Assembly (NCBI GenBank): GCA_016839815.1 | Contig: JAEOTM010000204.1 | Location: forward strand, 32,001 to 96,000 | Source of the DNA: Candidatus Hodarchaeota archaeon | Lineage (GTDB): Archaea; Asgardarchaeota; Heimdallarchaeia; Hodarchaeales; Hodarchaeaceae | Direction of reading: 5' to 3' | Length of the DNA stretch: 64,000 bases | Shown here: in pieces, positions 47,472 to 62,450 of the stretch | How positions within the stretch are numbered: the stretch's first letter is position 1 | How the letters are laid out: each line of letters begins with the position of its first letter | Made by a program: the position numbers and the translations under genes | Notes under the pieces: generated by a model | Database searches by the model: none | What the model saw: only the letters and a program-made list of their open reading frames with translations | What the model was told of the DNA's origin: nothing

Positions 47472-47616
47472 AGAAGTGACCACCAGACATAAGACCAGAA
47501 GACTTATCTACACACTCTAATTGACTCCTTAAGGTTATTTTTCTGAGTTTGAAAAAAACGAGAAGACTGACCCTTTCCACGTTAATCTTGTATTATTAGT
47601 CCTTGTGTGATAGGAA
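47472..47616 (+). repeat. Dispersed repeat copy R2 (full)
   Basis: Block A, then gactccttaagg, aaaaaacgagaagactgaccctttccac and ccttgtgtgatagga. Confidence 0.92.
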
Positions 47617-48020
47617 TGAGTTAGAAAATTAAATGGAAATCCCATAAGCATTCAAAATTCCTTTTTTAAGGCGATATAGTATATACTAATTAATCGATAT
47701 TTAGAGAGTACTAAGAACCACAAAAAGGACGTTATCCCCAATATTTTTACTTGTAAATGAGAGGACTGAAGAATTTCACATTCTAAAGTCCTTAAAATCA
47801 TGTCTAGCATTGTAATCGGTCTCTATTGTAGAAAAAATAAGTTTCTATCGAGAAATGAAATGAGAATTCCGATTTAACACGCCTGACGTCCACATTCCAC
47901 CTCTAGATGATTCCTTTTATTTTATCAAGTTCTTCAATAATAATTTAAAGCTCTGTTGTGAAAAGTAAGGAATAAGTAGGTCAACCTCGCTGAAGCTGGC
48001 AGGCAAAGAGAGGGAAATAT

Positions 48021-48653
48021 ATGAGAAGCCAAAAGTTAATTGGAACGAAAATTCGAATAAAAATCGTACTGATTGGAGATGGAGGGGTTGGAAAAACCAC
48101 TCTTCGACGCACATGGTTAGGAGAAGAGTTTAAAACCGAGTATCATATGACTATTGGCGCTGATTTTGCATCCAAAGAAGTAAGTTACTATCATTCCCCA
48201 ACAAAAACTACCTATAAAATCAAATTTCAAGTGTGGGATTTAGCTGGACAACCGATGTTTAAGGCAGTACAAGAGCTGTATTACCGGGGTGCAGTCGGAG
48301 CATTATGCTTTTTTGATATAACAAATCAGGAATCGTACATGCATTTGGTCGAGTGGATTCAAAGTTTCTGGAACTTAAATGGCAAGGGGAAAAGTCCCCT
48401 GCTTATTGTCGCTTCAAAATGTGATCTTCGCGACAATCCCGCATTTCCAAATCAGGTATCTGCCCACTATGGCAAAGAATATGCGGAAAAACTATCCAAA
48501 TCACTAAAAGATGAATTAGGGTTTTCTGTACATTATGTAGAAACCTCCGCAAAAGACGATATCAATGTGGATAACGTATTCAAGATGTTAGCAGGGGAAA
48601 TTATATCTAGCTACACCTTTCAGGAAAAAAAGGAAGAAACACCTACAAGGTAA
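48021..48653 (+). CDS. Rab-like small GTPase, paralog A
   Basis: GDGGVGKTT, TIGADF, WDLAGQ, YYRGA, SKCD, ETSAK. Confidence 0.95.
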   Translation: MRSQKLIGTKIRIKIVLIGDGGVGKTTLRRTWLGEEFKTEYHMTIGADFASKEVSYYHSPTKTTYKIKFQVWDLAGQPMFKAVQELYYRGAVGALCFFDITNQESYMHLVEWIQSFWNLNGKGKSPLLIVASKCDLRDNPAFPNQVSAHYGKEYAEKLSKSLKDELGFSVHYVETSAKDDINVDNVFKMLAGEIISSYTFQEKKEETPTR

Positions 48654-48824
48654 TTTATTTACCTTAACTAATTTTCCACATCAGTAATCCGTGGAAAAGG
48701 AGTGGGAGTTCCGTGAGAACAGAAACAGAAGTGCAACCTCCATCCAAAGACAATGATAATCCTATATATTACAAAACTCTCAGAGAAGAAAAGTCCATAG
48801 GACACTACTATTGAATAATTAGAA

Positions 48825-49439
48825 TTATCTACCTTTCTTCTTACGGTATAAAATTAAAACAAATAGATTGGGAAAGAAGGAAAGATACAGAAGACCAGGA
48901 GTGAAGACAGAACGAGAAGCAGGGAGAGTGGATAAAGGCCAGGTAGTGATTCTAGAAGGTGCTCCAACAAAGGTGGAAACACAAAAGGTGTCACTAGAAG
49001 TGGTAATAGCCAACCAGATAACTCCATAAACAAAACAACCCTCCACGAGAAAATCAAAAGAAGAACTAGTAGACAAAGAATAGGAAGGAGGAGAAATACT
49101 AACTGGATCAGAATAATTCCAAGTAACTCCTCCAAAGGTGACCTCATGCCAGAGACGAAGGGAAATGACCTCACAAGGAGAAGAACCATGATAGGTTAAA
49201 CGGATAACGAGTTGAGAATAACCCATACAATCCCAGGTAACCACCTCGGTATAATTAGGAGGATGAGGACCAGGGACAAATTGTGTCTCTCCATAATAAC
49301 CGAGAACAGACAAAGAAAATCCATCGGATGAGGTCGAAGGAATTGAAACGAAAAAAATGCTATTTGACAAAAATAGAAGACTAATCCCTATCAAAAACAG
49401 ACCAGAAAGGAACTTCATTGCAAGAGACCTTCTTATCAT
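48825..49439 (-). CDS. Secreted/anchored hypothetical surface protein
   Basis: Signal peptide and TPGL-TM-RKKKGR tail. The coding strand is strongly pyrimidine-rich. Confidence 0.65.
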   Translation of the reverse strand: MIRRSLAMKFLSGLFLIGISLLFLSNSIFFVSIPSTSSDGFSLSVLGYYGETQFVPGPHPPNYTEVVTWDCMGYSQLVIRLTYHGSSPCEVISLRLWHEVTFGGVTWNYSDPVSISPPSYSLSTSSSFDFLVEGCFVYGVIWLAITTSSDTFCVSTFVGAPSRITTWPLSTLPASRSVFTPGLLYLSFFPNLFVLILYRKKKGR

Positions 49440-49530
49440 CTTACGTGTCTAACTAGACTTAAGAAATCTTGGATGACAACACACCTATCACGCAAGAATT
49501 AGGGTGAGAATATTTTTTCAAAAAGGAGAT

Positions 49531-49670
49531 AATCCCCAGATATAAAACTCCAAAACTCATCAACCACACTTTTACAACTCCTGGAGGTGATTTCTTCTCT
49601 TATTTAGAAATAAACGCGAGGCCTGACCCTTTTTACATTTCTAATAAGAAAGAATCCTTGTACGATTAGT
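49531..49670 (+). repeat. Dispersed repeat copy R3 (degenerate, full length)
   Basis: ccccagatataaaac...aactcctggagg...aaacgcgaggcctgaccctttttac...tccttgtacga. Confidence 0.8.
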
Positions 49671-49722
49671 ATTGAACGGGACGTGGAATAATAGAAGGTC
49701 AGTCAAAGAGAAACTTTCAGTT

Positions 49723-61578: not shown

Positions 61579-61644
61579 ATTTTTAGTAAAAAACGAGAGG
61601 ACTGACCCTTTCACACTTTTCGTCCGAAGCTCGTGTGTGAGGAA
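61579..61644 (+). repeat. Dispersed repeat copy R7 (core only)
   Basis: aaaaaacgagaggactgaccctttcacac...tcgtgtgtgagga. Confidence 0.9.
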
Positions 61645-61704
61645 TTCAATATCTGTAAGATATGAAAACCAGTTATCTCATGAAGCATTGATAAAAAAGA
61701 GAAA

Positions 61705-61737
61705 TGTATATATAGATTGTAAACAGAAGTGTATACA
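61705..61737 (+). promoter_or_regulatory. Putative RHH operator: TGTAWAYA x3
   Basis: tgtatata at 61705, tgtaaaca at 61718, tgtataca at 61730, upstream of the antitoxin. Confidence 0.55.
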
Positions 61738-61770
61738 AATCACTTGGTGACTTCACTTGGATATGAGAAA

Positions 61771-61986
61771 ATGAGTCAAGTACAACTAAGATTACCCCCC
61801 TCTCTGGTAAAAATGATTGATAACTTGGTAGCAGAAGGAAAATACAAAAATAGAAGTGATGCGATAAGAACTATGATCTCTAATCAGATAGAGTTTGAAA
61901 AAACACGTGATTTCTTATCTATGCTTCAAACTAGGAGTAAAGAAGCAGAAGACCATCCAGAAGATTTGATTCCTTTTGAAGATTGA
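61771..61986 (+). CDS. CopG/ParD-like RHH antitoxin
   Basis: VQLRLPPSLVKMIDNLVAEGKYKNRSDAIR. Confidence 0.92.
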   Translation: MSQVQLRLPPSLVKMIDNLVAEGKYKNRSDAIRTMISNQIEFEKTRDFLSMLQTRSKEAEDHPEDLIPFED

Positions 61987-62261
61987 TCGTAATGCCATAT
62001 CAGATTCTATTCCATTCAAAAGCGGATAAGACCTTAAAAAGTTTTGAACTACAACTACAAAAACGGATTAAGCAGAAAATACAAATATTAATAAACCAAC
62101 CAAGAAGTGGAAAGCTACTAAAAGGGTCAAAATTCTTTTCTCTAAGAGCTGGGGATTATCGAATAATTTACGAAATTAAGACAGACCCCTCACGCATTAT
62201 TATTCTTTTCATTGGTCATAGAAGCGTGGTTTACGATAACTTTCTGAAATGGCTTTCGTAA
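61983..62261 (+). CDS. relE: RelE/ParE-family toxin
   Basis: YQILFHSKADK, LRAGDYRIIYEI, IGHRSVVY. Confidence 0.92.
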   Translation: MIVMPYQILFHSKADKTLKSFELQLQKRIKQKIQILINQPRSGKLLKGSKFFSLRAGDYRIIYEIKTDPSRIIILFIGHRSVVYDNFLKWLS

Positions 62262-62294
62262 ACACAGAATTACACCTAGATGATGTAAATGAGA

Positions 62295-62450
62295 AGAAGT
62301 GACCACCAGACTTAAGATCAGATTTTCTCAAAGAAAACATGAACACATGCTATTAGACTCCTTACGGCTATTTCTTTTTCTTAAAAGAAAAAACGAGAGG
62401 ACTGACCATTTCCACACTTTTTTCTGGAAAGTAGACCTTGTACGAGGAGC
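62295..62450 (+). repeat. Dispersed repeat copy R8 (full)
   Basis: agaagtgaccaccagacttaagatcaga...gactccttacgg...aaaaaacgagaggactgaccatttccac...ccttgtacgaggagc. Confidence 0.92.

Follow-up and report, generated by a model that had tools for sequence, protein, structure and literature searches.

The 64,000-nucleotide stretch of DNA analysed here (the window; Candidatus Hodarchaeota archaeon, assembly GCA_016839815.1, contig JAEOTM010000204.1, positions 32,001 to 96,000, G+C content 36%) carries ten copies of a repeat between 47.4 and 62.7 kb, all on the same strand. Read on the minus strand of the window, this repeat shows homology to the 3′ end of the 23S ribosomal RNA (rRNA) of the genus together with the 3′ strand of its processing stem. 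The repeat units lie between small gene cassettes that are shuffled between related species, and they contain two local hairpins whose pairing is kept by covariation. The rRNA identity and the array setting of the repeat are secure. We infer that recombination at the units builds the array, and on balance we favour the explanation that they are attachment-type repeats of a cassette array formed by recombination at the 23S 3′ end.

Origin of the repeat at the 23S rRNA 3′ end

Searches with nhmmer identified 44 copies of the repeat in the whole 4.24-Mb assembly, distributed over 13 contigs and uniformly oriented within each of them. Contig ends often coincide with arrays, and many copies are located there. 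The units have a length of 130–440 bp and follow each other at a spacing of 0.6–3.1 kb as co-oriented sites bounding gene cassettes. They share a core of about 22 nt which is nearly invariant (0–1 mismatches in most copies), with flanks at 70–85% identity; a search of the window with 21 nt of this core gave seven matches versus none in shuffled sequences. Among 400 Asgard genomes searched, the exact core was restricted to five, all belonging to one subclade. Elsewhere in the genus, arrays are made from the members' own trailer variants.

Longer copies of the repeat include all of 23S domain VI, corresponding to positions 2721–2973 of the Rfam large-subunit rRNA (LSU) model. Isolated archaeal LSU matches in genomes of the same genus all span these positions, often several per contig and on one strand, and in one of these genomes (G002) the LSU fragments run unbroken into the exact core of the repeat. 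In the genome under study, C192:6020-6355 matches LSU 2721–2973 at 123 bits (E = 6e-35) directly beside a unit core, and contigs C62 and C192 align to the G002 fragments over 386–398 nt (E = 1e-91 to 2e-114). The 23S fragments begin within about 20 nt of the domain V/VI boundary, and the domain VI part is missing from the majority of copies in this genome. An LSU search of the genome revealed no assembled 23S gene. A 10-nt identity of the core with the sarcin-ricin loop is at chance level and was discarded as the source of the homology.

Four parts make up the stem strand contained in the units. The core forms the inner helix strand; the others are the cut site of the bulge-helix-bulge, TAGCCTTAAGGAGTC as the outer helix strand, and a distal motif, which likewise pairs with the leader. 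In genomes G007 and G002, the 23S leader shows complementarity to the core as well as to TAGCCTTAAGG and the distal motif. Pairing of leader and trailer (cofold z = −2.1) leaves a 4-bp helix between two 3-nt bulges, a 3-4-3 geometry read by eye from native-type units. Within the stem of leader and trailer, this strand is unpaired only at the endonuclease bulge and where it joins the mature 3′ end, and the two hairpins are located at these two places. Hairpin A takes the place of the bulge exactly at the bulge-helix-bulge cut site, and hairpin B sits at the mature 3′ end, where it stands in for the tetranucleotide AACC that separates this end from the stem. The native states without hairpins, AACC and CGT-CAG-TTAG, are retained in a few units.

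Two metagenome contigs of about 2.8–3.0 kb each, L051 (Ga0210332_105294) and L052 (Ga0210353_162552), contain in this order 23S domain VI, the mature 3′ end, the trailer core, the inner leader strand and the 23S 5′ end up to model position 2678. Their junction is the product expected from endonuclease cutting in the bulges followed by ligation. As judged from their sequences, these contigs would represent either an assembly of cut-and-ligated, circular 23S rRNA or a 23S gene that is circularly permuted; a G002 DNA contig shows a normal leader. The junction is in line with the circular 23S rRNA reported for archaea including Asgard (PMC12918454), and the contigs may add sequence-level support for such a circular molecule in this lineage, a permuted gene being the alternative. 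Both contigs end at the intron site seen in G007, where a real 23S gene (L029:16937-17756, on G007:C8) is interrupted some 45 nt ahead of domain VI, near LSU position 2678, by about 370 nt of inserted sequence, an intron whose ends are complementary. A full-length 23S gene on another contig (L001, G001:C57) is strongly unlike the genus-type 3′ end and trailer of G004 and G007 and shows no resemblance to the repeat; this contig is probably mis-binned and foreign to its bin.

Two short hairpins beside a near-invariant core

Two short hairpins of 5–8 bp flank the core, hairpin B on the 23S side and hairpin A on the other. They were analysed in 99 core-bearing copies drawn from the genome under study and four genomes of the same genus (G002, G074, G075 and G076). 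A perfect stem of at least 5 bp directly beside the core was present at the hairpin A site in 61% of the copies as compared to 5% of shuffles, and at the hairpin B site in 47% as compared to 9%. The positional profile of such stems showed two sharp peaks of 50–59%, against 2–5% over the remainder of the unit and 12% in windows taken at random from the genome. The hairpins differ widely in sequence: 72 B hairpins contain 49 distinct 5′ arms, and 55 A hairpins contain 19. Homology in truncated units stops just outside hairpin B in 32 of the 99 copies and just outside hairpin A in 25, so that the minimal unit remaining after truncation is hairpin-core-hairpin.

Alignment of 115 copies from five genomes revealed double changes at all 13 pairs of the two hairpins. 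The number of double-change cells amounted to 201 versus 80 ± 13 in shuffles, none of 500 shuffles reaching 201, and the covariation score was 0.276 compared to 0.133 for shuffled sequences and 0.06–0.10 with slid partners. As this alignment was fitted to a two-hairpin model, it leans towards that model; a plain MAFFT alignment of 37 copies showed covariation in the same direction. The enrichment of hairpins and the double changes therefore indicate that local pairing is kept while the sequence changes. An initial annotation of the window had proposed such a behaviour for a larger, multibranched fold, and the proposal holds for the two local hairpins and not for the larger fold. Hairpin B is the variable segment which the annotation had placed between its blocks C and D, and the self-complementary segments it quoted for units R2, R3, R4, R6, R7 and R8 are present in the sequence as written.

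The remaining parts of the proposed fold could not be confirmed. A hairpin of block C is possible in its 6-bp form in only 16 of the 99 copies because the triplet that must form two of its G/C pairs varies freely (TTT in 27, TGG in 17, TTG in 14, GGG in 14, others in the rest) opposite an invariant partner and without compensation. The helix suggested to close the fold, between ACTCCT of block B and a terminal AGGAGT, forms completely in just 12 of 47 copies; ACTAAT, the unpaired variant that is common here, represents the native 3′ end of 23S. Whole units folded no better than their dinucleotide-shuffled counterparts, with z between −2.0 and +0.5 and averaging about −0.6 whichever strand was folded, and RNAalifold, applied to 37 copies, returned no consensus structure. 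Folding had furthermore been assigned to the plus strand, opposite to the strand of the rRNA reading, on account of a G-T pair. The stems are nearly all perfect Watson-Crick with a single G·T in total and both strands fold equally well; this argument therefore carries no weight.

Two further pairings were considered. A GGCT/AGCC closing pair was uninformative since it is mostly invariant. A long stem joining the regions of hairpins A and B around the core seemed possible in single folds, and was discarded because the complementarity of the two sides is no higher within units than between them (5.03 versus 5.12). For the same reason, together with the whole-unit z values, the unit does not qualify as an overall imperfect palindrome of the attC type. 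A third site of variable palindromes was observed within the 23S helix-101 part, for example at positions 59216-59267 of the window and at L026:17560-17639, where the native CAG-CGAG-CGGCC is swapped for differing small hairpins such as CAGTGTGTTTTAAACACTG.

Cassette exchange and the units of the window

Ras-family GTPases and toxin-antitoxin pairs of the PIN and ParE types are encoded by the cassettes of the window, alongside a NosD-type beta-helix protein, a nitronate monooxygenase, a TrmB-ferredoxin protein and a CitMHS transporter. The cassette genes are found on both strands, and units are flanked by genes in either orientation. An array starting at the intact target gene was observed in G007:C8. 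Here a real 23S gene (LSU 2545–2987, 328 bits, containing the intron) lies at the contig end, and behind it come its trailer and, spread over 45 kb, at least seven more copies of the trailer. Products of the cassettes in this array are Ras GTPases, AbiE, a methyltransferase and a Kelch protein.

Comparison of the arrays revealed extensive exchange. NosD, PIN, nitronate monooxygenase, ParE, Ras and nitroreductase cassettes recur in G002, G074, G075 and G076 at 77–93% identity with differing order and neighbours. Unit R6 at 59.2 kb has a hybrid composition: one unit of G075 corresponds to its 23S side and another to its right flank, and in G075 the two are separated by an extra cassette. This is the outcome expected of recombination between direct repeats. 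The hairpins of orthologous units differ by indels and loop changes. Small GTPases of the Ras/Roc/RagA type are the largest cargo family, with 32 of 352 open reading frames (ORFs) in the arrays of the genome under study (G000) and of G002, G007, G074, G075 and G076, including an LRR-Roc protein of 685 amino acids. The rRNA-linked array may serve as a nursery for small GTPase paralogues.

Differences in extent and arrangement were also observed at the array borders. A gene at 41448-42419 (plus strand) outside the array encodes a protein of 323 amino acids with no Pfam match, and its orthologues (78–91% identity) lie inside the arrays of G002, G074 and G076; by its location, this suggests that the array once extended further or that cassettes may become fixed. 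Directly past the last unit, a weak Ras-like ORF is located at 46931-47455 (plus strand; Pfam E = 0.001). In G074_C33 this segment is followed by another unit and then by a cassette which is found at the opposite end of the array in the genome under study, and the arrays are thus arranged differently in the two species.

The last array unit in the window is R2 (47472-47642; core + 47560-47580), which like all units described here lies on the minus strand. Besides the core with hairpins B and A, it holds a remnant of the 23S end, the outer strand of the processing stem and the distal trailer motif (nhmmer E = 7e-34; 104.9 bits with model R1). Units of G002 and G074 contain orthologues of its right flank. 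Next to it lies a degenerate partial unit (47741-47816; E = 1e-4) with a core-like sequence at 47761-47781 containing three core mismatches. A gene for a Ras-family small GTPase follows at 48021-48653 (plus strand), with a paralogue at 57733-58365 (plus strand; Pfam Ras, E = 9e-40 and 7e-40). Unit R3 (49523-49672; core + 49616-49636; E = 8e-14; R1 67.6 bits) has a long hairpin A. The gene at 49723-52713 (minus strand) encodes a NosD/beta-helix surface-type protein by Pfam, and its cassette is common to G075 and G076 at 83–88% identity. This NosD cassette forms the right flank of unit R4 (52674-52811; core + 52749-52769; E = 1e-30; R1 108.5 bits), a flank that is orthologous to G075_C159.

Two reduced units follow. 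A truncated unit at 54136-54225 retains the 23S-end remnant, hairpin B and the core (+ 54144-54164), and its homology stops at the palindrome TCAATATTGA located at the hairpin A site. The minimal degenerate unit at 54715-54813 (core + 54779-54799; R1 32.9 bits) carries the palindrome GCTTGCAAGC at the same site. A further unit at 57312-57473 (core + 57391-57411; E = 4e-31; R1 90 bits) has a 23S helix-101 remnant on its 23S side. The hybrid unit R6 covers 59142-59267 (core + 59176-59196), and the truncated unit R7 (61576-61645; core + 61595-61615) loses homology just past the hairpin A site. Unit R8 (62293-62683; core + 62395-62415; E = 1e-35) carries on its 23S side a decayed copy of domain VI extending to about 62683, which aligned by blastn to a 23S-fragment copy of G002 over 392 nt at 69.6% identity (E = 5e-33). 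Pfam assignments between 58400 and 62261 comprise a PIN toxin (58400-58813, minus strand), an antitoxin-PIN pair (59377-60026, plus strand), nitronate monooxygenase (60480-61520, minus strand) and an RHH-ParE pair (61729-62261, plus strand). Each of these cassettes recurs in other species in different neighbourhoods.

Candidate mechanisms and known systems

A full unit is a duplicated piece of the 23S locus that extends from domain VI through the mature 3′ end and includes the complete 3′ strand of the processing stem. In the explanation we favour, these limits, an rRNA domain boundary and the end of the processing stem, would enclose what has to be supplied for 23S to keep working, and with every insertion at the 3′ end of the rRNA the necessary portion of gene and flank would be brought along or duplicated. 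The analogy is to integrative elements at tRNA genes, which integrate serially and whose incoming DNA brings the 3′ part of the gene. Cassettes, which measure 0.8–3 kb, would enter, leave and change order via recombination between units, and the intermediate would probably be a circle made of a cassette and a single unit. Candidate agents are homologous recombination and a recombinase that has escaped recognition; the range of unit lengths and the fuzzy left edge would be compatible with homologous recombination through circular intermediates. Because the hairpins occur at just two unpaired stem sites and at truncation points, we read them as DNA-level palindromes tied to cassette junctions, or as tolerated insertions. 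They would not be parts of a folded RNA machine.

Several observations weigh against this explanation. The core is conserved far beyond its flanks, which simple scar decay does not predict, and junction palindromes of about 50 different sequences are explained neither by homologous nor by site-specific recombination. The left edge of the 23S fragments, being fuzzy over about 20 nt, fits no precise crossover. Contact of the array with the 23S gene of its own genome is not demonstrable because the rRNA is unassembled. The scanned viral contigs contained no copy of the core, so that no free mobile form was seen. Pfam scans of ORFs detected no integrase in or beside any array examined, the arrays being fragmented by assembly. 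More specifically, no element-encoded integrase was present in the arrays of G000 or G007, nor among the families recurring in the arrays of G002, G074, G075 and G076, and clustering of the 352 array ORFs yielded no recurrent candidate enzyme. A PF00589 search of the genome under study returned one tyrosine recombinase, on contig C183, which is probably the chromosome resolvase. Since the near-invariant core and the many-sequence palindromes are left unexplained by recombination at the 23S 3′ end, three other explanations were retained.

The first of these takes the units as inert relics, either displaced old 23S 3′ ends or by-products of duplication, with hairpin symmetry arising from quasi-palindrome template switching instead of selection. 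The visible decay of the domain VI parts is in agreement with this idea, as the sarcin-ricin loop is mutated in one G007 copy and most copies of the genome under study are truncated. Perfect Watson-Crick stems with almost no wobble and no strand bias are what symmetry at the DNA level would produce, and both the indels and loop changes between hairpins of orthologous units and the failure to find an enzyme fit as well. Relics should, however, hardly preserve a near-invariant core between flanks of 70–85% identity, nor a hairpin-core-hairpin unit that persists where all else is lost. They account equally poorly for hairpins at exactly two positions in over half of the 99 copies and for cassettes reshuffled at unit boundaries. 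We therefore consider an origin as relics unlikely, although it deserves serious attention.

Action of the units as RNA appears more doubtful still. They might be decoys or regulators pairing with the 23S leader (as minus transcripts) or with the trailer (as plus transcripts), or else processing or termination signals insulating the cassettes from rRNA read-through, and the two hairpins would then present a single-stranded core. In pre-23S the core is indeed the strand that base-pairs with the leader, and the ligated junction contigs still contain it; the layout of a conserved single strand between hairpins resembles antisense RNAs, and covariation is strong in both hairpins. Runs of five T are enriched at the hairpin A site on both strands, where they occur in 29–36% of copies against a background of 9%; at this frequency, hairpin A as a bidirectional terminator received partial support only. 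These arguments are opposed by the very low stability of the hairpins, mostly −0.7 to −4 kcal/mol, by the lack of wobble pairing and of strand asymmetry, and by whole-unit energies that match shuffles. Rfam gave no match to a non-rRNA family in the window at the gathering score, nor over the array at E ≤ 10, and neither a consensus fold nor a conserved upstream sequence that could be a promoter was detected beside units whose flanking genes face both ways. An independent non-coding RNA, as also suggested by the initial annotation, was accordingly not supported; a covarying whole-unit fold with stability above shuffles is missing, and only the two local hairpins covary.

An attC site is as a whole an imperfect palindrome in which R''-L'' pairs with L'-R', and it folds as the bottom strand with extrahelical bases; the stems and energies computed here show no strand asymmetry. 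That the units are attC-like, i.e. folded single-stranded DNA substrates of an integron-type tyrosine recombinase, is very improbable: co-oriented sites bounding small cassettes rich in toxin-antitoxin pairs, hairpins of variable sequence with pairing kept, and the report of classical attC integrons in Archaea including Asgard (PMC9668308) would fit, whereas no IntI-like gene lies beside any array in a genome with a single tyrosine recombinase, the sides of a unit are no more complementary within than between units, whole-unit z values are near zero, the conserved part is central instead of terminal, and cassette genes face both ways. Of the attC proposal made in the initial annotation, the notion of a site that works like an attachment site survives, as the cassette-array setting makes a role in recombination likely; the identity with attC fails for want of an overall imperfect palindrome and of an integron integrase near the arrays.

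It is conceivable, though we would not yet call it probable, that a genus of Hodarchaeales runs a gene-capture platform, integrase-less or with an unknown recombinase, which is anchored on the 23S 3′ end, uses a processing-stem strand plus two sequence-free hairpins as attachment site, and trades cassettes between species with Ras-type GTPases as the commonest cargo. If so, the hairpin-core-hairpin unit would constitute a new kind of recombination site and a route for the spread and multiplication of GTPase families. Asgard archaea are the archaea closest to eukaryotes, and Ras-type small GTPases are a hallmark family among the 'eukaryotic signature' proteins. As the array gains, loses and swaps GTPase paralogues, toxin-antitoxin pairs and enzymes between species, it bears on the Asgard expansion of eukaryote-like families. 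An anonymous repeat now has a clear origin in the rRNA gene's own tail and processing signal, and a hypervariable cassette region is attached to the 23S gene across the whole genus. In practical terms, partial 23S matches and broken rRNA assemblies in these genomes should be taken as a real genomic feature and not as noise.

Full-text searches of a paper library for Asgard mobile elements, archaeal integrons and rRNA-linked cassettes yielded no description of rRNA-derived cassette boundaries; the mobile elements described for Asgard archaea include aloposons at tRNA genes (PMC8813620). Integron arrays resemble the arrays described here in that repeats of one orientation alternate with small cassettes, which mostly serve a single function and include many toxin-antitoxin pairs, in that the order of cassettes varies between relatives, and in that the repeat contains sequence-variable hairpins. 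They differ in that no integrase and no R/L-box palindrome were found here, the conserved core is central and of rRNA origin, and the genes are present in both orientations. The archaeal pre-rRNA processing stem, with its bulge-helix-bulge and circular 23S rRNA (PMC12918454), corresponds to the units in another respect: core and outer strand are exactly its 3′ strand, and the junction contigs show the expected cut-and-ligate product. In the arrays, this 3′ strand alone has been copied dozens of times away from any leader, and since a hairpin replaces the bulge in most copies, canonical cleavage is unlikely. Integrative elements at tRNA and tmRNA genes likewise have direct repeats that copy the 3′ part of a stable-RNA gene plus the following DNA, an array that abuts the intact gene, and older copies that decay. 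In contrast to these elements, the target here is the 23S rRNA gene, with domain VI and the processing-stem strand extending up to about 440 bp, the cassettes are small (1–3 kb), devoid of integrases and separated by dozens of copies, and the best-kept part of the repeat is the flank of the gene and not the gene part itself.

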